This document shows, piece after piece, positions 475-11,508 of a stretch of DNA of 64,000 bases (positions are counted from its first letter, which is position 1; every line of letters starts with the position of its first letter). The position numbers and the translations under genes were made by a program. This DNA comes from Thermodesulfobacteriota bacterium (GTDB taxonomy: Bacteria > Desulfobacterota > Desulfarculia > JACQYL01), in NCBI GenBank assembly GCA_963675595.2, contig CAXXLZ010000002.1, forward strand, positions 2,784,001-2,848,000, written 5' to 3'. A model generated the notes under the pieces. The model made no database searches. It saw only the letters and a list, made by a program, of their open reading frames with translations, and was not told the origin of the DNA.

Positions 475-1068
475 CTACGCCTCTACACGCCGGTCCTTCT
501 TGCGCCTCGCGCCCGGCAAAGGACGCATCTCCGCTCCCTTGCCCAATTCCTTCAAGTGGACATGGATCCCTCTGAAAAAAGGCAGCCGCCATCGCACCTG
601 TTTGAACAAAATCCGCATGAGAATATAAAAAAGCAGGAACGGAAACGCGTACCCCACCCGGTTTCCCGCGAAAGGCAGAGGAAAGGGCAATTCGAACGGA
701 ACCCCGGAAAAACGTTTGCCCATCCAGTCGAGCGCCAAAGGAATCGGCCAAAGCATTCCCGCTCCCAGGGCGATCTGGTAGAAGAAGGACCGGCCGAAAG
801 CATCGTTGGCTTGCTTGTTGCACGCCGTGTACCCCGCCTTGTCCCCCAACTCCAGCGCCTCCATGGACAGATTGTGCATTTTGACCATTTCCTCGTTGTG
901 ATCCCGGATGAATTTCCGATTGATCAACAGGGCCGACGCCATGGTCAGTTCGCCGCACAGCACCGCCAGCAAAGCCAGCACCGCCGTCCCCAGGTAGAAG
1001 CCCAGCCACGGGTTCTCCGGAACGCGGTACCCGTAAATCAAAAGGGCGTCCATCCATTCAGGCCACAT
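475..1068 (-). CDS. Conserved membrane protein usually encoded next to TauE/SafE genes in sulfate reducers
   Basis: Hydrophobic segments and the motif YTACNKQANDAFGRSFF. Start at MWPEW has RBS AGGGG. Directly downstream of tauE. Confidence 0.7.
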   Translation of the reverse strand: MWPEWMDALLIYGYRVPENPWLGFYLGTAVLALLAVLCGELTMASALLINRKFIRDHNEEMVKMHNLSMEALELGDKAGYTACNKQANDAFGRSFFYQIALGAGMLWPIPLALDWMGKRFSGVPFELPFPLPFAGNRVGYAFPFLLFYILMRILFKQVRWRLPFFRGIHVHLKELGKGAEMRPLPGARRKKDRRVEA

Positions 1069-1114
1069 ATTCCCCTGTTCCCATTCCCACAGGCCGTCGG
1101 CCCGCACCGAAACA

Positions 1115-2263
1115 TCAGAAAGGCGGCAGCCAACTCGTTCCTAAGAAGCCCTTGGTGGTGTAACGAATACCCACGTAAAGCGCCAATACCACGAACAACC
1201 TCTTGAGCCAGATGTCCGGTATATACTTGGAGGTTCTGGGACCGATCATGGATCCCACGAAGATTCCGATTAATTCCACGCCGATGAGCCCCCAATGGAC
1301 CGGAACGTCCTTGCTGACCATGTAGGTCGTAACGGAAATCACCATGCCCACGAGCACCGTCAATGCGGAAGTACCGGCCACCAGGAACATGGGCAGACCG
1401 GCTATGGAGGTCAGAAAAGGAACGAACAGGAATCCGCCGCCCACGCCGATGAAAGAAGCCATCGCGGCAATGAGCAGACCGCCGATAACCGGCACGATGG
1501 GGGTAAAGCTGAATTCGGCTCCGAAGAAGGTAAAGTGCACTTTCGCGGGGCTCCAACTCAAGACTTTGACCCCTTGCTCCAGTGCGGCGCTCGAATCCTT
1601 TTGTTTGACGGATTTCTCGAAAGCCGCGGCCGCCGCTTTGGCCGCTTTCTTTCGGGCCTGACCCCTCGGAGTGGTTTCATAGAAAAGGAATCCGCCGATA
1701 ATCAAGACCACCAGTCCGAAGTACCCCAAGTACTCTCGGAGATTGATCTTGCCCGCGGTGAATACGGGTATCAGGTAGGACCCCAGGATCGAGCCCAATG
1801 CAAGACAGATCCCCAGAGGAAGCACCAGTCTCCGCATGCGATAGTAGTTGAGAGAACTGATGAAGGCGCTCAAGCCCACCAGCCACTGGTTCGAAACCCG
1901 AATCGAGTCCGTGATCGTCTTGTTCAGCGGATGTCCTTTGCCGAAAGACTTGGCATAGTCCCCCAGTCCGAAAACCGTGATGTGGCCCACTCCGGCCATG
2001 ATGCCCCCGAAGGCGCCCACACTGGAGAAAATCCACCCCACCCAGATCGCCCAGAAAAAGCCCACCACATAGCTCACCTGAGGCCCGCCGGGGATCCCCA
2101 GAAATCCGGGAGCGGCGTTGGGGTCCAACCGCCCGCTTTCGATGCCCGCTTGAATGGCGTCGGAAAGGGTATCCGCGAAAGCGGGCGCCGCAATCAATAA
2201 ACCAACGGATAGAAGAAGCCAAACCGCCAACCCGACCGAACACATCCTCACACCAAGCTTCAT
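1115..2263 (-). CDS. Sulfite exporter TauE/SafE (TSUP) family protein
   Basis: Multi-TM protein with motifs GAFGGIMAGVG and FIGVGGGFLFVPFL...VAGTS; RBS GGAGGTGA. Confidence 0.85.
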   Translation of the reverse strand: MKLGVRMCSVGLAVWLLLSVGLLIAAPAFADTLSDAIQAGIESGRLDPNAAPGFLGIPGGPQVSYVVGFFWAIWVGWIFSSVGAFGGIMAGVGHITVFGLGDYAKSFGKGHPLNKTITDSIRVSNQWLVGLSAFISSLNYYRMRRLVLPLGICLALGSILGSYLIPVFTAGKINLREYLGYFGLVVLIIGGFLFYETTPRGQARKKAAKAAAAAFEKSVKQKDSSAALEQGVKVLSWSPAKVHFTFFGAEFSFTPIVPVIGGLLIAAMASFIGVGGGFLFVPFLTSIAGLPMFLVAGTSALTVLVGMVISVTTYMVSKDVPVHWGLIGVELIGIFVGSMIGPRTSKYIPDIWLKRLFVVLALYVGIRYTTKGFLGTSWLPPF

Positions 2264-2366
2264 TCGTCACCTCCAGACCGTTTCAACCGCAGGGGCCTTT
2301 TCACCCCGCCGTCACGGGTTGTTATGAAATTCTTCCATATCTCCCGGCTTCAGCCGGGAAGTTACC

Positions 2367-2382
2367 TGCATGAGCCGAGCCC
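2367..2382 (-). promoter_or_regulatory. Possible sigma54 (-24/-12) promoter upstream of tauE
   Basis: Minus strand GGGCTCGGCTCATGCA has GG-N10-GC spacing but is an imperfect match to TGGCAC-N5-TTGC. Confidence 0.3.
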
Positions 2383-2404
2383 TCTCCAACCTTCGCACCC
2401 GAGA

Positions 2405-3244
2405 TCATTCCACTCCGAGCTCTTCTTTGATGCGTCGGATGATGTTCAGAAACGCCCGCGCCACATCCGAATCCGGACGCGCTTCGAACACGGGTGTGCC
2501 GTTGTCGCTTAGGGAAACCAATTCAGGATCCAAAGGAATCCCGCCCAGAAACGGCAGCCCGGCTTCCGATGCCAGCCTTTTCCCGCCTCCGGTCTTGAAC
2601 GGATCGATGACCCCGCCGCAGTGAGGACACACGAGCCCGCTCATGTTCTCCACAATCCCCATTCGCAGGTTCAGTCGGCGACAAAATTGTACGGACTTGC
2701 GCACGTCGGCCAGCGAAAGCTCTTGGGAAGTGGTCACGATCACCGCGAAGGCGTCCGGAATCATACGAGCCGCGGTCATGGGCTCGTCGCCGGTACCGGG
2801 CGGCGCGTCCACCACGAGATAATCCAGGTCTCCCCAAGGAACATCCGCGACGAATTGACGGATCATGTTGGTTTTGAGGGGGCCTTTCCAGATAACCGAC
2901 GCGTCCTTGTCGCGAAGGAGCGATTCCACGGACATGACCTCAAAGCCTTCGCGATAGACGACGGGGTCCATGGTCCGGTCCTCCCGGACCCGAGTCATCC
3001 GGTCCTTGATTCCGAGGAGTCCGGGTACGCTGGGACCATGTAGATCCACGTCCAGCAGGCCCACTTTGGAGCCTTCGGCATACAACCCGCAGGCCAGGTT
3101 CACGGCAACGGTGCTCTTACCCACCCCACCCTTGCCGCTCATGACCAACAGCTTGTGCCTGATATGGTCGAGAGACCGCCGGATCATTTCATCCTGGAGG
3201 GCTTTCACGGCACCCCGACAAGATTTCCCTTTTTCAGCGGTCAT
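2405..3244 (-). CDS. mrp: Mrp/NBP35 (ApbC) family Fe-S cluster carrier ATPase
   Basis: SGKGGVGKST, DVDLHGPS, DYLVVDAPPGTGDE, ENMS..CPHCG. Confidence 0.92.
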   Translation of the reverse strand: MTAEKGKSCRGAVKALQDEMIRRSLDHIRHKLLVMSGKGGVGKSTVAVNLACGLYAEGSKVGLLDVDLHGPSVPGLLGIKDRMTRVREDRTMDPVVYREGFEVMSVESLLRDKDASVIWKGPLKTNMIRQFVADVPWGDLDYLVVDAPPGTGDEPMTAARMIPDAFAVIVTTSQELSLADVRKSVQFCRRLNLRMGIVENMSGLVCPHCGGVIDPFKTGGGKRLASEAGLPFLGGIPLDPELVSLSDNGTPVFEARPDSDVARAFLNIIRRIKEELGVE

Positions 3245-3346
3245 CGGTCCGCCTCTGAAATCTCCGAATCCATAAATACCTCATAGAATCTCTTCACGAA
3301 ACCCCACCCGCTCGAACGATACGAGCGCGGAAGTCATGGCGCCTCA

Positions 3347-4504
3347 TCAGCCGCGACCGGCCCCGGCCGTCTTCATGGTCTCGATCTCCTCGGCGGGGCG
3401 GCCGCCTCCCATTGTGCGTCCCATTCGGTCCCGCAAAGCGGACCTCACCGCTTCCATCTCTTCGTCGTCCGGAATGTAAGGGTAGTTCCACTGGCGCACG
3501 CCGGGCAGACAGTTCCCGAAGGGACGATTGCACGCCACTTCCCCGTCCCTGCCGGGACAACCCGAGGTCATAAAAGGAGTCCGCCGCTCCACGGTTTCCA
3601 GAAAAACCTTCTCCGGAACCCCGAAGTCCCGGATGCGGCCGGCGTCGTCGAAACGCATGCTCTCGGCCCGGACTTGGTTTTCCTCGATGAGAAAACGGGC
3701 GACCTGCAACATGAGGTACTCATCCCAAGGAGGCTGGGGTAGATGTGCAAGCCGAGAATTCGATTCCGCGAAGAAACTGAACAGGTGGATCAGAGCCCCC
3801 GCATCGTGAACGCGCTGGAAGACTTCCACAAGCCGGCGTTGAGTTTCCCCCAGCCCCACGATCAGATGCACGCTCACTCGGAACTCCCCGAAAATGCTTA
3901 CCGAATCGTGAACCGTTCGCCAATATCGGTCCCAACGATGAGGCCCCCGTACGCCCGCTCCACGAAACTCCTTGAAAAGGTCTTCGTCGGCGGCATCCAG
4001 AGCCACCCCGATCATGTCGGCGCCGGCATCGCGGTAAGCTTCCAGGTCCTTTGAGGACAACACGGTGGGAGCGCAAAGAACGGAAAGAGGGAGATCGCAG
4101 GCCGAAGTGATGGTACGAGTGAGATTCAAGGTATCCCGTACCGCCCGCGGATGAGTGACCATTGAGATGCAAACCCGTCGCAATCTTTGCGATTGCGTCC
4201 TCATGCGCTCAATGATTTCCGAGACCGGCAGCGTGGGCCACCCCACTTTGATGAAGCTCTTTTCCTCATACTCTCCGGGACGATGGCGCGCCAAACCGCA
4301 ATAGGCGCAATTGGCGCGACAGCCTTCCGCGTAGGTCAGAAGAAGATTCACACAAGGATTTTTCGCACCTCGGTAAAAACGGCCCGGCAAGAACCCGAGC
4401 TCCATGGCGGTGGCCGTGCTCAGTTTCAGCACATCCGGGCTCTCCAGACGGACTTCCGGTTCACCGCAGGCGCCCTGAGGTTGAAAAACTTCCGTATCAG
4501 CCAT
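3347..4504 (-). CDS. Radical SAM protein, LipS2-type lipoyl synthase subunit
   Basis: CRANCAYC (CxxxCxxC) and C-terminal TSGCPG...CNRP, matching the LipS2 TxGCPxC(N/D)RP motif with an insertion; overlaps the lipoate ligase stop. Confidence 0.8.
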   Translation of the reverse strand: MADTEVFQPQGACGEPEVRLESPDVLKLSTATAMELGFLPGRFYRGAKNPCVNLLLTYAEGCRANCAYCGLARHRPGEYEEKSFIKVGWPTLPVSEIIERMRTQSQRLRRVCISMVTHPRAVRDTLNLTRTITSACDLPLSVLCAPTVLSSKDLEAYRDAGADMIGVALDAADEDLFKEFRGAGVRGPHRWDRYWRTVHDSVSIFGEFRVSVHLIVGLGETQRRLVEVFQRVHDAGALIHLFSFFAESNSRLAHLPQPPWDEYLMLQVARFLIEENQVRAESMRFDDAGRIRDFGVPEKVFLETVERRTPFMTSGCPGRDGEVACNRPFGNCLPGVRQWNYPYIPDDEEMEAVRSALRDRMGRTMGGGRPAEEIETMKTAGAGRG

Positions 4505-5600
4505 GGGCTTCCTTTGCTGATTCCAATAGTCCGGAAGACGAAGGAGTGGGCCGTTTCGCGGCTACAACGGCTTCCGCCAGAGCTTCGGGATCCACTCCGT
4601 GAATCATGTCCGGCACCCAGACCTTCCGGATGGCTTCCAGAACCGATTCCTTTCCCACATAGGTCCATTTCAGCGCCGACTCGATCCGATTTACCGATTC
4701 CACGGATGAAAAGAAATCCCCGGTAATCACCACCTGATCGATGACGTTGCCGGCAGTGGAAAGGTACACTTGGAGCAGCCCGCCCGGTGTCTTTCGGAGC
4801 GCTTCCCCCATGCGGGACCGTGGATGCTTGTGGGAAAAGACCCAGGACGGATCGCGGTAACGGTTCATTTCCAACTCCCGCGCCGTCCGTTCTTCCCATT
4901 CCGTGGGGCTCGAGTTTTCGAAACGGACCTGCAACTCCTCCTCGAAGGATCGGATCACGGCCCTTATCACTTCGTCCATCCCCGGGTTCCGTCCCGCCTC
5001 CCGGGAAATGGTGGTCAATCTTTCGCTGAAACAGCTGTATCCTTTGTCGTAGATCTTCTCCGTGGGCGTGTTCATGATGTCCAGCATGAGGTCCACGTCG
5101 AATTCCACCAGAAGACTCGCATGAAACAGCACCGCATTGCCGATTTCATTGGAAGCGGACAAACCCGCCAGCTTTTTGCCGCTCACCTCGATATCGTTCT
5201 TGGGACGAAATCCGGCTTCGATTCCCAGAGCTTCCAAAGCACGCATCACCGCCCGACTCATGGCCTGGAAAAGGCTCCGGATCCCTTTTCCGGTTCTTGA
5301 GTTTCCAAGAGAGACTCCGAGCCCGAGAGCCACCACCTCCGGCCCCATGATCACCGTTCCGCCGCCGGTGCTCCTGCGATTATAGGCAACGCCTCGATCT
5401 TTGCACCGATCGAGCTTCAGAGCGGCCCGTATGTCCTGGTATCGCCCCACGATGGCGGCGGGTTCAAAAGTATATAGATGAAGAATGGGAGGGGAATTCC
5501 GCTGAAAAACGGCATGGGGCAACATATCGTCCACGGACAGGCCTTCCGTGACGGGCACACGACGTTTCCAGTCTTCGAAGAGTCTCCACGTTTCCGTCAT
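4497..5600 (-). CDS. Lipoate:protein ligase (LplA catalytic domain plus C-terminal accessory domain; sLpl(AB)-like)
   Basis: RRSTGGGTV, FRPKNDIEVSGKKLAG, HASLL, and C-terminal KTPGGL...ITGDFF. Confidence 0.9.
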   Translation of the reverse strand: MTETWRLFEDWKRRVPVTEGLSVDDMLPHAVFQRNSPPILHLYTFEPAAIVGRYQDIRAALKLDRCKDRGVAYNRRSTGGGTVIMGPEVVALGLGVSLGNSRTGKGIRSLFQAMSRAVMRALEALGIEAGFRPKNDIEVSGKKLAGLSASNEIGNAVLFHASLLVEFDVDLMLDIMNTPTEKIYDKGYSCFSERLTTISREAGRNPGMDEVIRAVIRSFEEELQVRFENSSPTEWEERTARELEMNRYRDPSWVFSHKHPRSRMGEALRKTPGGLLQVYLSTAGNVIDQVVITGDFFSSVESVNRIESALKWTYVGKESVLEAIRKVWVPDMIHGVDPEALAEAVVAAKRPTPSSSGLLESAKEAHG

Positions 5601-5604
5601 GAAA

Positions 5605-6045
5605 TCACGATGTCTTGGCGCGTTCTTCTTCCGCGTGGGAGATTTCCCGATCGATCCATTCCTTCACCGCGTCTCCATGGAACAGCTTGGAGAGCTCCTC
5701 ATCCAGATCCGAGGGCTTCATCCGAAACACCCAACCGCCCCCATAAGGGTCCGTGTTGACCAAAGTGACTTCGTCTTCCAGGTCCTCGTTCACCTCGATG
5801 ATCGTGCCGGAGAGGGGAGAGCACAGTTTGCCGATCCACTTACGGCTCTGAATCTTTCCGCAGACTTCCCCCTGCTCCACTTCGTCGTCTTCCTCGGGCA
5901 TGTCCACAAACACGATCTCTCCGGCCTCTTTCTGAAAGAAATCGTTCATCCCCACCGTTACGCTCCCGTCCTCTTCAAGGCGGGCCCAACTATGTTCCTC
6001 GTGATAGTAAAGATCATCAGGCAGCGAAAAATCCTGGAATTCCAT
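5605..6045 (-). CDS. Lipoyl-carrier protein, GcvH fold (LbpA-like)
   Basis: LPDDLYYHEEHSW, VGMNDF, lipoyl-Lys motif IQSRKWIG (LbpA-like ESGKWVG type), VNTDPYGGGW; RBS AAGGAG. No gcvT or gcvP in the window. Confidence 0.88.
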   Translation of the reverse strand: MEFQDFSLPDDLYYHEEHSWARLEEDGSVTVGMNDFFQKEAGEIVFVDMPEEDDEVEQGEVCGKIQSRKWIGKLCSPLSGTIIEVNEDLEDEVTLVNTDPYGGGWVFRMKPSDLDEELSKLFHGDAVKEWIDREISHAEEERAKTS

Positions 6046-6123
6046 GGCCCTTCTCTCCTTTCTCAGCAACGCGCCAACCGATCCCGCCGGGTGAAGTCCA
6101 CCGTCTTCCCGGCCCGATTCGTC

Positions 6124-6381
6124 TCAAACGGACCCCGCCATTTTCCGGTTCACCTTGGTACGGATTTCAAAAAGATTCTCCGAACCGTGTAATTCTCCCG
6201 CAAGGAAACGCTCACGCGTCCGCACCGGTTCCGGATTCAAATATCGGAGACCCCCGACGCAGACGGCACCACCACAATTGTTGCACACTCTGCGGCCCGG
6301 GTAAAGAGACTCGTCCGAATCAACATGGTCCCGACAGGCTCTCAACCGCCAGTCTTTTGATTCCACATCCATATTCACCAT
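6124..6381 (-). CDS. Possible small hypothetical protein (85 aa, CxxC)
   Basis: ORF fills the gap between hdrA and the lipoyl-carrier gene on the same strand; no recognisable family, so it may be non-coding. Confidence 0.25.
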   Translation of the reverse strand: MVNMDVESKDWRLRACRDHVDSDESLYPGRRVCNNCGGAVCVGGLRYLNPEPVRTRERFLAGELHGSENLFEIRTKVNRKMAGSV

Positions 6382-6411
6382 CCGCTTTCCAGAAATTTCG
6401 GCCTTGCCCGC

Positions 6412-9261
6412 TTATGGGGACGGGGTTACGTCAAGCAACGCGGCGATCCTTGCAGACATCGCCGAGTCGGGCGGATCGCTCAGCGTGATGGCTCCCGCGG
6501 GACATTCGGCAACGCAGACACCGCAAGCACGACACAAGAAAGGGTCGATTCGGCTCACGTTCCCATCTCTGACGGCGGGTGCGCCGTAGGGACAGACTCG
6601 GACACAGGCCAGGCACGCTTGACAACGCCCCGCATCCACTACCGCGGAAACTCTCTCACGGCCCAGATCCTTGAGGAACAGAGCCGCACGCAAGGCCGCG
6701 GACTTGGCCTGCCGCACCGTTTCCTCCAAAGACTTGGGCGATTGGACCAGTCCGGCCGCAAAAACCCCGAAAACCGCCGTTTCTTCACTCAATAAGGGCA
6801 TACGGGCGTCGGAGATGAAACCTGAATCGTCCCGGGCGACCCCGAGTTCCTTCAGCCATTCCCCGGAGTCTCCCGGAACCATGGCCGATGCCAGCACCAG
6901 TCGGTCGGCGGGTGTCTCGATGTCCGCGTTAAGCAACTCATCGAAAAAGACAACGTAGACGCGTCCACCCCGGATTTCAACTCGAGGCTTCCGCTCGGGC
7001 GAAAACCGCGAGAACAGGATACCCGCCTCCCTCGCCTCCCGATAAAGCTCCTCCCGAAAACCATAGGTCCGAATGTCGCGGTGCAAAATAAATATCGAGG
7101 CCTGGGGGCGAAGCTTTTTCAAAAAAAGAGCGCTTTGAATGGAATGAGTGCAACAAACCCGGCTGCAGTAAGGCCTGTCCGAATCCCGAGACCCCACGCA
7201 TTGGATGAAGACCGCACGGGACACATCGTTCAGGGCCTCCGCCCCCAATCGCAGCTGTTCGTCCATCTCTCCGTGAGTCAGCACGCCAGGATGGCTTCCA
7301 TACCCGTATAACGAAGGGCGGATTTCCTCCGCCCCGGTGGCTACGACCACCGCCCCGTGCTCCAAAACACTGCGGGCTCCTTCGGGACCCTCGAGCTCCG
7401 TGATGAACGCGCCTCCTCGACCTCGCGTGCGCAGAGGCCGCGTCCGGTTCATCATGGTGAGCAAGGGTTCGGTCCGGGCCTCGGCCAACAGTCCCTCCAT
7501 AAAAGGAGGTACGGGCGTACCATTCCACAGGGCGGCCATGCGACGTGCGTTCCCGCCGAAAGTCTCGGTACGCTCGACCAACACCACCGGCACCCGCATT
7601 CGGCACAGTTCCAGAGAAACGCACAATCCCGCCGCACCGCCTCCCACCACCAGCACTTCCTTACGGAAAGGAATCGACTTGATTTCCGGCGGAGCGCCGG
7701 CCGTCACTGAGGCCAGGGCCTCATTCACGAGGGATCGGGCCTTTCCCAATGCCGCATGAGGAGCGTCCCGGTGAACCCAAGCGCATTGCTCCCTCAGGTT
7801 GGCCATGGCCATAAAGCGAGGAGGGAAGCCTGCGGCTTCCAATCGGTTCTTGAACAGAGGCCCCAAGATCCTTTCGGAGCAGGAGGCGATCACCAGCCGG
7901 TTCAGATCGTGCGTCCGGACCGCGGACATCATGGAAGCCAATGCCGCATCGCTGCACGCATAAGAAGTCCGTTCCGTGTGCGCCACCAAAGGAAGGGAAG
8001 CGCATCGGGTTTCCAGGCTTGAAAGGTCGATCACGTTGCCCACGTTCCCGCCGCACCCGCACAAAAAAACGCCGACGCGGGGAGGTCCGTCGTTCACCGT
8101 GGTATTCGGAAGTCGTTTGGGAGCCGTCGCGTCCTCGAGGAGAGTCCGGGCGCAGCAGGCCGCGGCGGCCGAAGCCTGGGATAGAGACTCCGCCACGTCT
8201 TTTGGACTCTCAAAAGCCCCCGCAACATAAATTCCCGGGCGGGAAGTCCACACCGAGTCCAAAGGATCGGTCGAAGCGAATCCGTAAGGGTTCAGGTCGA
8301 CGCCCAACACTTCCGCCGTTCGGCGTGCCTCCACCGACGGCTGCAATCCGACGCTCAACACTGCCAGGTCCACCTCTCGTTCTTGTCTCGCTCCGTCTTC
8401 CGATTCAAAGCAGAATCGCAGGCTTCCCGTTTCCGGAGCTTCTTCGATGGCGGGAATTCGCCCGTAAGCGAATTCGACGCCGTGGTCTCGCCGAGCCTTT
8501 TCGAAGTAGGGATCCAAGTCTTTTTCATGCGCGCGAACATCCATGAAATAGATGCGGACCTCGGCGTCCGGAAGCAGTTCCTTAACGGCCACGGCCTCCT
8601 TTACGGCATAGGCGCAGCACACGGAGGAGCAGTAGGGATTACCGCATCGGGTGTCCCTGGAGCCCACGCACTGAAGGAACGCGATCCGCTGAGGAGTCGC
8701 CCCGTCGGACGGACGAAGCAGTCCCCTGCCGGAAGATTCGCCGGGACGAATCCATTCCTCCAAGTCCACCGAAGTCACCACATTGGGCATTCGGCCGTAT
8801 CCGTATTCCGGTTTCAGGGCGGCATCGAAGGGAACACAACCCGGCGCCAGAATCACGGCCTGAACATCCAACGTTTCTTTGGACCGGAGGCCTTCTTCCG
8901 GGCCGTGGATTACGGAAACGGAGAAGCTGCCGGATGTGCCCGAAAAGGCGTCGATCTCCGCATTCGTCCATATTCGGATACCCGGGCGGGTCGCAGCTTC
9001 GTTCACACGACTCGACAATACGCAGTCCGCACAGTCGTTGGTGGGAAACAGTTTGTCCAGCCGGGCGAGGAGGCCCCCGGGAGAGGAAGCGGAATCCAAG
9101 ACAACGCATCCGAGTCCCAGGTCGTCCAGGTCCAAAGCCGCCTGCAATCCCGCGATTCCTCCACCTACGACCAGGACTGTGGAAAGATTGTTCGGTGCTG
9201 GTTGAATATCACTGGCTTTCATGGCATTGGCGTCGGTTTCTTTCAGGTTGTGCTTTCCCAA
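6412..9261 (-). CDS. hdrA: Heterodisulfide reductase subunit A-like flavoprotein (two FAD modules, C-terminal 2x[4Fe-4S])
   Basis: VVGGGIAG..LDKLFPTNDC, LQCVGSRD..YCSSVCC, VGVFLCGCG, NLREQCAWVH, second module VVGGGAAG..IQCVGSRD..YCSRVCC, C-terminal CQACLACVRVC and CRACGVCVAEC. Confidence 0.9.
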   Translation of the reverse strand: MGKHNLKETDANAMKASDIQPAPNNLSTVLVVGGGIAGLQAALDLDDLGLGCVVLDSASSPGGLLARLDKLFPTNDCADCVLSSRVNEAATRPGIRIWTNAEIDAFSGTSGSFSVSVIHGPEEGLRSKETLDVQAVILAPGCVPFDAALKPEYGYGRMPNVVTSVDLEEWIRPGESSGRGLLRPSDGATPQRIAFLQCVGSRDTRCGNPYCSSVCCAYAVKEAVAVKELLPDAEVRIYFMDVRAHEKDLDPYFEKARRDHGVEFAYGRIPAIEEAPETGSLRFCFESEDGARQEREVDLAVLSVGLQPSVEARRTAEVLGVDLNPYGFASTDPLDSVWTSRPGIYVAGAFESPKDVAESLSQASAAAACCARTLLEDATAPKRLPNTTVNDGPPRVGVFLCGCGGNVGNVIDLSSLETRCASLPLVAHTERTSYACSDAALASMMSAVRTHDLNRLVIASCSERILGPLFKNRLEAAGFPPRFMAMANLREQCAWVHRDAPHAALGKARSLVNEALASVTAGAPPEIKSIPFRKEVLVVGGGAAGLCVSLELCRMRVPVVLVERTETFGGNARRMAALWNGTPVPPFMEGLLAEARTEPLLTMMNRTRPLRTRGRGGAFITELEGPEGARSVLEHGAVVVATGAEEIRPSLYGYGSHPGVLTHGEMDEQLRLGAEALNDVSRAVFIQCVGSRDSDRPYCSRVCCTHSIQSALFLKKLRPQASIFILHRDIRTYGFREELYREAREAGILFSRFSPERKPRVEIRGGRVYVVFFDELLNADIETPADRLVLASAMVPGDSGEWLKELGVARDDSGFISDARMPLLSEETAVFGVFAAGLVQSPKSLEETVRQAKSAALRAALFLKDLGRERVSAVVDAGRCQACLACVRVCPYGAPAVRDGNVSRIDPFLCRACGVCVAECPAGAITLSDPPDSAMSARIAALLDVTPSP

Positions 9262-9268
9262 TGTGAGA

Positions 9269-10153
9269 TCACTCGATACCGAGTCTCTTCAGGAGCTTTT
9301 TCGGCTTGACGATGTTCTGCTTAAATCCGAGTTCCTTGGAAGAAAACCCCATACCCAAGCCCAAGATTTGGGTAATGAAAAGGACGGGCAGCTCGAAAGG
9401 CTCTCCGGACGCCGTGTCGATGCTCTTCTGGTTCGATTCGTACATAACCGAACAGAAAGGACAGGCCACAGTCAGGACCTCGGCTGTGGAATCCCGCAAG
9501 GCGTTGAGTTTGGACCGGGCCGCGGCCACGGCGGTTTCCGGGTCGTAAGCCATCACCGGCCCCCCGCAACATTTTGTTTTCCCAGGGTAATCCGTAGTGC
9601 GAGCCCCTGTGAGCCGTGCGAGTCGATCCAGAGAAGAGGGCGCTTCCACACTGTCGAAGCCATGAAGCTCCGAGGGCTTGATGAAATGACAGCCGTGGTG
9701 CGCGGCCACCGTAACGGCGGAGAGGTCTATCTTCATTGCATCGCCCACGGCCTTCAGTCCCACCTCGTCGTGGAGAAAGGGCACAATATGCGAAACCTTC
9801 ACGCCGCCTTCATACCGCAAGCCCACGCGTTCCAACTTCCGGTCGACTTCGCGCCTCAATTCCGGGCGGTGATCCAGCTCCACCGCGGCCTCCTTTAAAG
9901 AGGAGGTGCAGGAACTGCACAAGGTAAGGATATCCAGACCTTCCCGACGGGCCAGGGTCAAATTCGCGGCCGCCAGCGTGATCGCGGCCGTTTCGTCCAT
10001 GGCTTTCAAGGGAAAGCCGCAGCAGGCGAAGGTGAACACGTCGACCAAGTCGACGCCCAGGGCGAGACAAACGCGCCGTGCCGAGGCCTCGTAGTGCCTC
10101 GTGCGGGCCGGAATGGTGCATCCCAAGAAAAGTGCTTTGCGCATGTTATCCAT
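9269..10153 (-). CDS. hdrB: Heterodisulfide reductase subunit B
   Basis: Two CCG domains: FLGC..ACCG..LCSSC and HHGCH..KCCGG..ACPFC. Confidence 0.92.
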   Translation of the reverse strand: MDNMRKALFLGCTIPARTRHYEASARRVCLALGVDLVDVFTFACCGFPLKAMDETAAITLAAANLTLARREGLDILTLCSSCTSSLKEAAVELDHRPELRREVDRKLERVGLRYEGGVKVSHIVPFLHDEVGLKAVGDAMKIDLSAVTVAAHHGCHFIKPSELHGFDSVEAPSSLDRLARLTGARTTDYPGKTKCCGGPVMAYDPETAVAAARSKLNALRDSTAEVLTVACPFCSVMYESNQKSIDTASGEPFELPVLFITQILGLGMGFSSKELGFKQNIVKPKKLLKRLGIE

Positions 10154-10323
10154 AAATTGAGTTACTCCGGCGATTCAGTGCCCAACCCTCTCCAAGCGTC
10201 TCCCCAGCGGACGGCCGGGGGACGAGCACTTGCCCGCATCTCTCGGCGGTTTTGGGCTCGGGACGAAAGCCGTTGTGTCCCCGTGCGGCGAACACGGATG
10301 GAGAGACGCATTTCCGGAAACAA

Positions 10324-10827
10324 TCACGGTTTCACCGGCGCAAGGTCGTCCGCCAACAATGCGCCCGCATCTTCCAACACGGTGGGCAACTCCGGCAGAT
10401 CGAGTTTGACCCGTTTCTTATTGTCGAAGTCACTGATCTCGTAGATTCTGCCCATCCGGGAAAGGCTCTCCAACTGGATATTGGTTCCCGCCGGCGCATA
10501 ACCGGAGCGATACGCCATGTTCTTGAGAACGGTCATGAGCTCCGCGATATGCACGCCTTGAGGGCACCGTTCCCGACAGGCGTAACAGGAAGCGCAAAGC
10601 CACACGAAACCACCGGACAACACCTCCTTTTTCATGCCGAAAAGGCACATGCGGATAAGGCGGCGAGGGTTGAAGCGCTCATCGACTTCGCGGATGGGAC
10701 AGCTCATGGTGCAGGTTCCACAAGCGAAACAGGCGGCGAGGCTCTCCCCGCCGGGCCGGCTCCGAATTTCCATTGCGAACGAAGGGTCCAATTCTTCTAC
10801 GGCAATACGATTCAAAGCGAACTCCAA
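10324..10827 (-). CDS. hdrC: Heterodisulfide reductase subunit C
   Basis: CFACGTCTMSCP and WLCASCYACRERCPQGV; start codon uncertain (TTG). Confidence 0.9.
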   Translation of the reverse strand: MEFALNRIAVEELDPSFAMEIRSRPGGESLAACFACGTCTMSCPIREVDERFNPRRLIRMCLFGMKKEVLSGGFVWLCASCYACRERCPQGVHIAELMTVLKNMAYRSGYAPAGTNIQLESLSRMGRIYEISDFDNKKRVKLDLPELPTVLEDAGALLADDLAPVKP

Positions 10828-10858
10828 GATATTGAGAACAGCCGAAGCGGCTAGACGC

Positions 10859-10899
10859 GACGGCGGTTATCCATAACCGTCGTCCTCACAGGCTGTCAA
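10859..10899 (-). promoter_or_regulatory. Putative sigma70 promoter of hdrCBA overlapped by a 26-bp inverted repeat
   Basis: TTGACA (10899-10894); palindrome GACGGCGGTTAT-CC-ATAACCGTCGTC (10859-10884) covers the expected -10 position. Confidence 0.5.
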
Positions 10900-10943
10900 G
10901 CCGGCGGGAGACATTTCTTACCCGTCGGCGGACACTGCGAAGG

Positions 10944-11483
10944 TCAGGAAGTCGGTGCGAGGTCTTCGAGGGCTCGTGCGTAAGCGTTGAATGCTTCGTC
11001 GCCGAAAAGCACGAAACGCACTTTTTCAATCTCCGGATGATCCTTCAGGTACGCCCGAACAGCGGACAGAGCAACGGAAGCGGCCCGGTCCAAAGGATAA
11101 CCGTACGCACCCGTACTGATCGAGGGGAAGGCCACGCTCTTTAAACCGTTTTCCGACGCCAATTCCAGGCTCTTGCGGTAGGCGCCCGCAAGCGCCTGCG
11201 GCTCACCGGACCCTCCTCCGGACCAAATGGGACCCACCGCATGGATTACCCGTCGCGCCTTCAAGTTTCCCGCGGTGGTGATCACGGCACTCCCCGTGGG
11301 ACATCCGCCGAGCCGACGACATTCCTCCATGATCTTGGGGCCGCCCGCCCTGTGTATGGCTCCGTCCACTCCACCCCCTCCCGCAAGCCGGGCATTGGCC
11401 GCATTGACGATCGCGTCGGTGCCTTCGTGAGTGATGTCGCCTTTCACCAGCTCGATCCACGACCCGTTAACACGTACTTCCAT
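10944..11483 (-). CDS. ymdB: Macro domain protein (O-acetyl-ADP-ribose deacetylase, YmdB/MacroD type)
   Basis: GDIT, AIVNAAN..GGGGVDGAIH, VIHAVGP, AFPSISTGAYGYP; ATG at 11483 with RBS GGAGG. Confidence 0.9.
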   Translation of the reverse strand: MEVRVNGSWIELVKGDITHEGTDAIVNAANARLAGGGGVDGAIHRAGGPKIMEECRRLGGCPTGSAVITTAGNLKARRVIHAVGPIWSGGGSGEPQALAGAYRKSLELASENGLKSVAFPSISTGAYGYPLDRAASVALSAVRAYLKDHPEIEKVRFVLFGDEAFNAYARALEDLAPTS

Positions 11484-11508
11484 GAAGAACCCTCCATACA
11501 CCATACGT

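Follow-up and report, generated by a model that had tools for sequence, protein, structure and literature searches.

A lipoyl carrier gene and its maturation genes beside hdrCBA in a DsrAB-carrying Thermodesulfobacteriota bacterium: a variant of the Hdr/lipoyl-carrier theme

The sHdr–LbpA system of sulfur oxidisers, described from Hyphomicrobium denitrificans, Thioalkalivibrio and Aquifex (PMC6067878; PMC10332631; 10.1101/2023.12.18.572138), is the nearest described counterpart of a gene cluster in a Thermodesulfobacteriota bacterium (GenBank assembly GCA_963675595.2) that encodes heterodisulfide reductase (Hdr) subunits next to a GcvH-like lipoyl carrier protein. Two sHdr types have been defined, type I by shdrC1B1AHC2B2 and type II by shdrC1B1AHB3 together with etfAB, each in one syntenic cluster, and sulfurtransferases of the TusA, DsrE and rhodanese types are described as their constant companions (10.1101/2023.12.18.572138). 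LbpA is reported to bear a strictly conserved lipoyl-attachment lysine and two conserved cysteines, near its N- and C-terminus, that GcvH is said to lack (PMC6067878). It forms a phylogenetic group apart from GcvH, with basic regions where GcvH surfaces are acidic (10.64898/2026.10.01.755906). The sLpl(AB)–LipS1/LipS2 pathway joins an Lpl(AB)-type ligase of archaeal descent to LipS1 and LipS2, and 58% of the bacteria that contain LipS1/S2 are reported to be without sHdr (PMC10332631). A further setting, the SirTM/macrodomain/GcvH-L/LplA2 operon, is known from Staphylococcus and Streptococcus (PMC4518038; PMC11490716; PMC12440151), where the SirTM sirtuin is paired with a zinc-containing macrodomain (PMC11490716). 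The cluster compared with these systems here lies in a 64,000-nucleotide stretch of DNA (the window; contig CAXXLZ010000002.1, positions 2,784,001 to 2,848,000).

Ten co-directional genes span window positions 475–10827 in the order hdrC–hdrB–hdrA–orf85–carrier–ligase–lipS2–mrp–tauE–membrane protein (Table 1). Their spacing runs from an 8-base overlap, of the lipS2-like gene with the ligase gene, up to 170 bases, and a promoter and terminator scan, uninformative overall, gave one promoter-like site against 3.4 expected and no terminator-like site within the intergenic gaps. An earlier, sequence-only reading of this DNA had described this content, order and same-strand placement, and all ten genes lie, on the minus strand, where it put them. 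Its list of missing genes held as well: domain scans of the cluster, about 5 kb upstream and about 12 kb downstream returned no gcvT, gcvP, 2-oxoacid dehydrogenase, MvhD/FlpD, TusA, DsrE or rhodanese domain. The whole order, from the upstream plsY to the membrane-protein gene, is repeated in two further genomes of the same family (G001 and G002) at 45–79% protein identity, the contig of one of them stopping within mrp. The arrangement therefore goes beyond genes thrown together by chance in one assembly. The feature is real and conserved, and it adds a variant to the Hdr/lipoyl-carrier theme, found in an anaerobe that carries DsrAB and has no glycine cleavage system. We propose that HdrB, through its noncubane clusters, acts on the lipoyl arm of the carrier as its dithiol/disulfide, and, judged from sequence, we hold the balance for this to be about even.

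The identity of the carrier comes first, as by the usual measures it would pass for GcvH. It matches PF01597 at 1e-37, exceeds both NCBIfam GcvH cut-offs (TIGR00527, 124.6 against 115.85 bits; NF002270, 139 against 117 bits), has as its best solved relative 3a8i (3e-27), an entry named 'Glycine cleavage system H protein', and resembles canonical GcvH in its acidic charge. For all that, an ordinary GcvH of glycine cleavage or of a reductive glycine pathway is scarcely credible here. The host genome (6.79 Mb, three contigs, 98.03% complete) has no match to GcvT (PF01571) or GcvP (PF02347) in searches that gave control matches in 11 and 10 of 14 genomes, respectively. A relative's GcvT found nothing in it by tblastn, and GCV_T, present in 15 of 41 related genomes, was found neither there nor in G001–G003. 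The carrier therefore cannot serve a glycine cleavage system, and the worry that it might belong to a gcvPT locus elsewhere in the genome falls away. Missing partners and tree position together led to the rejection of a true GcvH: the carrier lies outside the canonical clade, in a clade none of whose 40 rows stands next to gcvT.

That clade was delimited with a quick maximum-likelihood tree of 119 carrier-like open reading frames (ORFs) from the window and from loci L004 and L037–L163 minus L137 (138 columns, LG+G4, SH-aLRT support only). ORFs of 230 amino acids (aa) or more were excluded, a filter that removed at least the L043 and L053 carriers and GcvH-domain fusion proteins of about 260–360 aa. 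The tree splits 40 rows, the window carrier among them, from 79 canonical GcvH rows with a support of 99; in it the window carrier falls apart from canonical GcvH, a question that the sequence-only reading had left to such a tree, and the carrier's side includes LbpA-type rows. On that side, the window carrier belongs to a group of six rows (support 98), which is itself part of a group of 30 rows dominated by Thermodesulfobacteriota (support 85); the group of 30 is separate from the five LbpA-type rows (support 99), which come from Aquificaceae, Anaerolineales and Actinomycetota records and are labelled by gene context only. In one such context (L073, an Anaerolineales record), genes for an HdrD-like protein, EtfB, EtfA and an Fe-S/CCG protein adjoin two carriers, a set of genes that agrees with what has been published for sHdr type II. 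Related genomes also hold GcvH-domain ORFs of about 256–357 aa (L140, L141, L149, L150, L152, L156 and L163) that stand outside the tree and the counts given below.

The lipoyl site itself distinguishes the two sides. In an alignment of the window carrier with 21 relatives, the lysine at the lipoyl position is invariant in all 22 rows; it is predicted to be K77 in the window protein, or K69 counted from the ATG at 6045 that is likely its true start. The S, K, W and G of the surrounding S-x-K-W-x-G motif are invariant as well, whereas canonical GcvH rows read ES[VT]K[AS]xS[DE]. Tryptophan follows the lipoyl lysine (K-W) in 37 of the 40 clade rows and in none of the 79 canonical ones, which makes it a simple, checkable marker that separates every canonical row of this sample from 37 of 40 Hdr-linked ones. 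The sole cysteines of the carrier, C70 and C83, flank K77 at −7 and +6 and could face each other across the lipoyl hairpin. C70 is found in all six rows of the sub-clade and C83 in four, and neither occurs at those positions in other carrier types.

What ties this clade to Hdr is the recurrence of CCG-domain genes, HdrB-like or HdrD-like, at its side. GcvH-like matches were found in 40 of 41 related genomes, host included, with up to eight per genome; 20 of the best-scoring loci were fetched and mapped by tblastn. A later scan with the carrier alignment gave 80 loci, mostly of canonical GcvH; a locus search of genome contigs with a single HdrA protein found nothing. Ten of the first 20 loci carry split hdrA/mvhD–hdrC–hdrB–carrier–glcD–hdrD, and six carry glcD–hdrD–carrier–hdrD or parts of it, as does a second locus of the host. 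Across the tree, a CCG-domain gene lies within 5 kb of 31 of the 40 clade rows and of none of the 79 canonical rows, and gcvT shows the reverse pattern (0 of 40 against 29 of 79). In six closed or nearly closed genomes all 33 GcvH-like matches were examined, seven of which, longer GcvH-domain fusion ORFs, were not counted. Here a CCG gene lay no more than 5 kb away from 10 of 13 K-W carriers and from none of 13 short carriers without K-W. Because the sample was picked by similarity to the query and contains mutual relatives, these counts are contrasts rather than statistics; for scale, with about 20 CCG-domain genes in 6.8 Mb, a site drawn at random has, by arithmetic, a chance of about 3% of lying within 5 kb of such a gene. 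The adjacency takes at least four architectures (hdrCBA–carrier; split hdrA/mvhD–hdrC–hdrB–carrier–glcD–hdrD; glcD–hdrD–carrier–hdrD; sHdr type II-like) and occurs in records titled Thermodesulfobacteriota, Chloroflexota, Actinomycetota and Nitrososphaerota. Across the entire clade, a functional link between Hdr and lipoyl carrier appears well supported by these gene neighbourhoods; for this particular hdrCBA the support is only moderate. One locus of a Candidatus Terraquivivens record (L065, 220–8650) interleaves three carrier-like genes with three HdrD-like genes and a GlcD-like gene; in two of these carriers the residue at the lipoyl position is not a lysine.

The cluster brings its own lipoylation genes. 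The ligase matches PF21948 at 2.7e-37 and PF10437 at 6.3e-09, and its best solved relatives are 2ars and 3r07 (2e-25), which we take to be a Thermoplasma enzyme, against 1.6e-06 for 1x2g, presumably E. coli LplA. The LipS2-like protein matches NF053743 at 2.4e-63 with 214.3 bits, under the 270-bit cut-off. Genome-wide there are three LplA/B-family, two LipS2-like and two LipS1-like genes, the LipS2-like proteins at 214–223 against 270 bits and the LipS1-like proteins at 214–219 against 230 bits, so that these are best family matches, all under the NCBIfam cut-offs. The LipS1-like genes lie elsewhere, at C2:302024 and C2:2510023 (C2 being the contig of the window). The latter (C2:2510017–2510889, minus strand; 214.2 bits, under the 230-bit cut-off) is about 274 kb from the cluster and is likely the partner of the window LipS2; within 100 kb around it the reference proteins used gave no match. 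LipS2-like genes were found in 22 of the 25 genomes whose carrier match is strong and in none of the 16 others, on an E-value split picked post hoc among interrelated genomes. Canonical LipA and one E2 with an adjacent dihydrolipoyl dehydrogenase (E3) are all encoded on another contig, C1. The lipoylation genes that the sequence-only reading named are supported as a dedicated set, and the organism has an ordinary lipoate pathway with one ordinary client plus two extra carrier–ligase–LipS2 sets.

The second of these sets (L004, C2:288000–307000) lies on the same contig, about 2.49 Mb from the window, and also encodes a K-W carrier. Its order is DctM, a LUD-domain protein, an LdhH-like protein, a multihaem cytochrome c, a GlcD-like protein, an HdrD-like protein, the carrier, a second HdrD-like protein, a ligase of 530 aa, a LipT-like protein, LipS1, LipS2 and an MFS protein, a company that suggests a lactate- or 2-hydroxyacid-linked role for its carrier. 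A third, distant GcvH-related protein (L005, 9443–10039, minus strand) matches NF045810, GcvH_rel_desulf, over the cut-off with 212.7 bits, and beside its gene lies one for a TsoB-like rhodanese/DsbD-type protein (9972–11357, minus strand; 742.6 bits, under the 805-bit cut-off). A broader proposal follows these patterns, one that we hold with somewhat less than even confidence: lipoate on carriers of the S-x-K-W-x-G clade may be the physiological dithiol/disulfide substrate of HdrB/HdrD-type CCG proteins in many non-methanogenic anaerobes, and LbpA of sulfur oxidisers would be one specialised branch of that carrier clade. The host would then have two such systems, the HdrCBA–carrier–maturation–permease module and the lactate-linked GlcD–HdrD–carrier–HdrD system, each with its own ligase and LipS2.

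The Hdr subunits retain the features needed to bind their cofactors. HdrB matches PF02754 at 1.5e-21 in two stretches and a solved methanogen HdrB at 2.1e-57, and its ten cysteines (12, 44, 45, 79, 82, 155, 195, 196, 231 and 234) are all present and invariant across 56 homologues, except that Cys45 is nearly so. HdrC matches TIGR03290 at 6.7e-28, under the cut-off, as well as Fer4 families, carries two Cx2Cx2Cx3C motifs (Cys 33/36/39/43 and 78/81/84/88), and has orthologues of 65–73% identity in G001 and G002. HdrA matches 5odc_A at 2.2e-107 and aligns to it domain by domain: residues 29–373 form a first, sHdrA-like flavin module that aligns to the 5odc_A flavin domain minus its inserted ferredoxin stretch (236–319) and that the sHdrA structure 6tjr matches over residues 28–369 at 9e-48; residues 394–540 are the HdrA N-terminal cluster domain, residues from about 535 to 865 a second flavin module, 31% identical to the first, and residues 866–926 a C-terminal two-cluster ferredoxin domain. 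The single HdrC/HdrB pair noted in the sequence-only reading and its distance from sHdr both stand, and its large HdrA turns out to be a tandem. The idea that such a size is special to this cluster was rejected on finding paralogues of the same length class at six or more other loci of the genome by tblastn (37–39% identity over 815–839 residues; Table 1). Some of these tandem-length paralogues adjoin HdrB/C-like or HdrD-like genes.

The intact motifs of HdrB and HdrC, together with the flavin modules and cluster motifs of HdrA, count in favour of a working enzyme that could act on the lipoyl arm. In such a scheme the oxidised dithiolane on K77 would be reduced by the two noncubane clusters of HdrB, or the dithiol form oxidised; electrons would move via HdrC to the HdrA flavins and from there to ferredoxin and a further partner that is not encoded in the cluster. 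That HdrB touches the carrier at all, which way the electrons run, any bifurcation and the physiological role of the scheme are what we infer here. A prediction of the HdrB–carrier complex from 56-row and 22-row alignments, for which controls were not run, scored 0.00 against a mark of 0.32 and counts neither way. Synthesis and upkeep of the cofactor would fall to the ligase, to LipS2 with a LipS1 encoded at another site, and to Mrp. Mrp matches PF10609 at 9.7e-91 and NF041136, MrpORP, with 349.7 bits, under the 450-bit cut-off; TauE, a single genomic copy by tblastn, matches PF01925 at 5e-22. Sulfite or another sulfur anion is one option for what TauE and the membrane protein might move, and uptake of lipoate or octanoate is another.

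Several observations weigh against HdrB acting on this carrier. The lipoamide couple lies near −290 mV and that of CoM-S-S-CoB, the mixed disulfide of coenzymes M and B, near −140 mV; lipoamide, being far more negative, would make a poor high-potential acceptor for bifurcation. The carrier itself, with a net charge of about −22, is acidic like canonical GcvH, where the LbpA rows of sHdr contexts range from −2 to −6. By its sequence the window HdrB appears to be an ordinary deltaproteobacterial-type HdrB: among 651 homologues at E ≤ 1e-30, the listed ones from outside the family are 48–54% identical to it, as against only 42–48% for the carrier-adjacent HdrBs of other families, so that hdrCBA resembles a widespread deltaproteobacterial Hdr that has ended up next to a carrier module, either by a recruitment that has meaning or by a rearrangement that is neutral. 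Adjacency of hdrCB holds in three of the six loci of the carrier sub-clade, all from one family, and the core of the six is carrier–ligase–LipS2. The two sister-family loci (G003 and G004), which run plsY, macro, two genes for a split HdrA-like protein (the second with an MvhD/FlpD domain at its end), carrier, ligase, LipS2, LipS1, Mrp, TauE and membrane protein, have no hdrCB beside the carrier; their best hdrC–hdrB match is on another replicon (HdrB 52% and 49% identity), and the 20 kb fetched around it hold no HdrA-like or carrier match. A Desulfatiglandales metagenome-assembled genome has hisD–carrier–ligase–lipS2 and no Hdr. Synteny within the family proves little by itself, as it also retains the functionally unrelated plsY and macro genes, and only three of the host's roughly 20 CCG-domain genes are near a K-W carrier.

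Much of this would also be expected if two unrelated units had become neighbours, a self-contained module for lipoate assembly, relay or salvage that comprises carrier, ligase, LipS2, Mrp, TauE and the membrane protein, and an ordinary sulfate-reducer hdrCBA that acts on DsrC or another thiol; TauE would then import lipoate or octanoate and Mrp would resupply a sacrificial cluster. Such an explanation fits the common type of the window HdrB, the DsrAB of the host, the constant carrier–ligase–LipS2 core and the lack of hdrCB from half of the six loci. It also fits the retention of Mrp, TauE and the membrane protein in four of five genomes (host and G001–G004) with or without hdrCB: mrp is kept in the clusters of G001–G004, the G002 contig ending inside it and so stopping short of tauE, and tauE is kept in G001, G003 and G004, each time followed by a homologue of the membrane protein. 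Sulfur oxidisers, too, are reported to have a putative fatty-acid transporter gene, lipY, among their lipoate-assembly genes (10.64898/2026.10.01.755906). Against a mere neighbourhood speak three points. Canonical LipA and a third LplA/B-family gene are already there for the single E2, which leaves a second, carrier-based relay without an evident client; an HdrA-like gene stands immediately ahead of the carrier in five of the six loci; and in the clade at large the tie to CCG proteins also holds at loci that have no lipoate-assembly gene close by. We consider two unrelated units rather unlikely. For the lipoyl arm as an HdrB substrate, the idea of the sequence-only reading, the balance is then mixed: the lack of a glycine cleavage system, the dedicated maturation genes and the link of the clade to CCG genes bear it up, while its local part is weakened by an hdrCB linkage confined to one family and by an ordinary HdrB. 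The synteny survey that it had called for divides in the same way, between 31 of 40 against 0 of 79 for the clade and three of six, one family, for the carrier's own sub-clade.

The genes around the cluster bring in a different possibility. Upstream lie a macro-domain gene and plsY, and downstream an uncharacterised gene, glycosyltransferase genes and a gene for a PAP2 protein. Conceivably, Hdr would use low-potential electrons to hold the carrier in its reduced state, and its dihydrolipoyl arm would supply peroxidases or mend disulfides under redox stress, as with GcvH-L of Staphylococcus aureus or the lipoyl-dependent Ohr/OsmC proteins. GcvH-L is reported to promote oxidative-stress resistance (PMC12440151), and work on lipoyl-dependent peroxidases is cited in 10.64898/2026.10.01.755906. 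The MacroD-type macro gene stands directly upstream in all five genomes, and in the sister family an HxlR-type regulator (6117–6833) and an Old Yellow Enzyme (OYE)-type NADH:flavin oxidoreductase (4897–6021; both minus strand in L039 of G003, with G004 alike in order) are divergent and just upstream of the split HdrA-like/MvhD genes. A role in redox stress nevertheless strikes us as distinctly improbable: no peroxiredoxin, Ohr, OsmC or sirtuin (SIR2) domain was found among the ORFs of cluster and flanks, the macro gene is closely tied to plsY too, across a 4-base gap, and its product is nearer to MacroD/YmdB-type entries (4e-60 to 3e-48) than to 'Protein-ADP-ribose hydrolase' entries (5e-22 to 9e-20). 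The company of macro, GcvH-like and ligase genes is reminiscent of the SirTM operons of Firmicutes, though the sirtuin was not found. Identity with such an operon was rejected, as no SIR2 domain occurs in cluster or flanks and the best relatives of the macro protein are of the MacroD/YmdB type. Within the cluster, orf85 has counterparts at the same place in G001 and G002 (45–48% identity, three conserved cysteines), and an Atlas look-up gave no lead for it (best 0.77). For the membrane protein the Atlas returned solely uncharacterised Thermodesulfobacteriota clusters, with a weak EMC3/TMCO1 hint on 14% of one cluster.

Table 1. Positions of the cluster genes and associated features (window coordinates, or contig coordinates where a contig is named)
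Feature	Position	Strand	Description
hdrC	10324-10827	-	ferredoxin-like subunit, 167 aa, two [4Fe-4S] motifs
hdrB	9269-10153	-	catalytic subunit, 294 aa, two CCG domains
hdrA	6412-9261	-	tandem HdrA flavoprotein, 949 aa
orf85	6124-6381	-	85 aa, Cys-containing, no Pfam/NCBIfam family
GcvH-like lipoyl carrier	5605-6069	-	154 aa, S-x-K-W-x-G clade; PF01597
lipoate:protein ligase, probably Lpl(AB)-type	4497-5600	-	catalytic and C-terminal domain in one chain
LipS2-like radical SAM protein	3347-4504	-	half of a LipS1/LipS2-type lipoyl synthase; NF053743
Mrp/NUBPL-type Fe-S cluster carrier ATPase	2405-3244	-	PF10609
TauE/SafE-family (TSUP) anion permease	1115-2263	-	PF01925
conserved membrane protein	475-1107	-	210 aa, no Pfam/NCBIfam match
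MacroD/YmdB-type macro-domain gene	10944-11504	-	116 bases upstream of hdrC, 4 bases downstream of plsY
six HdrA paralogues	C1:678865-681291; C2:1146437-1148923; C2:1150337-1152814; C2:1251705-1254218; C2:3173802-3176291; C2:3178089-3180545		

The wider interest of the locus lies in the substrate question. CCG-domain Hdr-type proteins are abundant in sulfate reducers, syntrophs and uncultured anaerobes, and outside methanogens their disulfide substrate is mostly unknown because CoM-S-S-CoB is not made there; a bacterium is not expected to make it. A genetically linked small lipoyl protein is a concrete, expressible and assayable candidate substrate for a non-methanogen Hdr. There is a practical side too. 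Since the carrier passes the curated cut-offs, annotation pipelines would call it 'glycine cleavage system protein GcvH' even though the host lacks that system, and this misnaming can mislead metabolic reconstruction, for example the inference of glycine cleavage or of a reductive glycine pathway. For anaerobes that do not oxidise sulfur, sulfate reducers and syntrophs included, the literature searched held no publication that connects Hdr genes with a carrier of the GcvH/LbpA kind, although supplementary tables S2–S5 of PMC10332631, which list genomes with LipS1/S2 and their gene arrangements, may already contain such clusters.

Among the known systems, methanogenic HdrABC (5odc, 9sfi, 8rvu, 7bkb) is the closest in its subunits. 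HdrB of the window has both CCG motifs with their ten cysteines and matches the solved chains at 2e-57 to 3e-44, HdrC has the two cubane [4Fe-4S] motifs, and HdrA has the thioredoxin-reductase-like flavin, N-terminal cluster and C-terminal ferredoxin domains. The window HdrA differs in its tandem of flavin modules, whose alignment skips the inserted ferredoxin of 5odc_A. Methanogen HdrA also has an electron-input partner (MvhAGD, formate dehydrogenase (Fdh) or an F420 module), whereas no FlpD/MvhD, hydrogenase or Fdh domain was found in the cluster or upstream flank. With the SirTM operon the locus shares a GcvH paralogue outside glycine cleavage, a lipoate ligase of its own and a nearby macro-domain protein; it differs in having no sirtuin gene and a macro protein of the MacroD/YmdB-like kind, and the SirTM operon has no Hdr genes. 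The related Hdr-linked K-W clusters of Thermodesulfobacteriota have a carrier of the same clade beside HdrB or HdrD-like CCG proteins, but they carry a GlcD-type FAD 2-hydroxyacid dehydrogenase and no TauE, Mrp or membrane protein.

The comparison with sHdr–LbpA bears on a last explanation, in which the cluster would oxidise or disproportionate sulfur in the manner of sHdr, turning sulfane sulfur into sulfite with the lipoyl carrier as co-substrate and TauE exporting the sulfite. The clade does include LbpA-type rows from sHdr type II-like contexts, the conserved TauE-family permease would suit such a role, and a dedicated Lpl/LipS-type maturation set is reported from sulfur oxidisers as well (PMC10332631). 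Yet the window has one hdrC, one hdrB and a tandem hdrA, with no second C/B pair in cluster or flanks, in place of C1B1AHC2B2, and neither an electron-transfer flavoprotein (ETF) domain nor an HdrD-like fused C/B protein between 475 and 12126 or in about 12 kb downstream, in place of C1B1AHB3–etfAB–emo. Membership in type I or type II was accordingly rejected, the gene set fitting neither published definition. Among the ORFs scanned, which run from plsY through the cluster and about 12 kb beyond it, no sulfurtransferase was found, the rest of the genome not having been searched. The carrier has a lysine at the attachment site, K77, and neither of the two terminal LbpA cysteines: the N-terminal position is F or Y in the 22 aligned carriers and lies in a C-x-[IL]-P motif in five rows of sHdr type II-like or Aquificaceae context. 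The HdrB is methanogen-like, and the host, whose DsrA is above the curated cut-off, is presumably an anaerobic sulfate or sulfite reducer. Sulfur oxidation of the sHdr kind is thus a very unlikely role, and with both type definitions failing, no sulfurtransferases nearby and no LbpA cysteines, the cluster is not to be filed as sHdr, as the sequence-only reading had held. The differences, then, are a single classical hdrC–hdrB with a tandem hdrA, a strongly acidic carrier without the LbpA cysteines, no neighbouring sulfurtransferases, and DsrAB in the host. What the two systems share is the pairing of Fe-S flavoprotein genes of the Hdr type with the gene of a GcvH-like lipoyl carrier outside glycine cleavage, dedicated maturation genes (in the window a probable Lpl(AB)-type ligase and a LipS-like synthase) alongside the canonical LipA pathway, and, between the window carrier and the LbpA-type rows of sHdr type II-like context, the K-W motif and a common clade.

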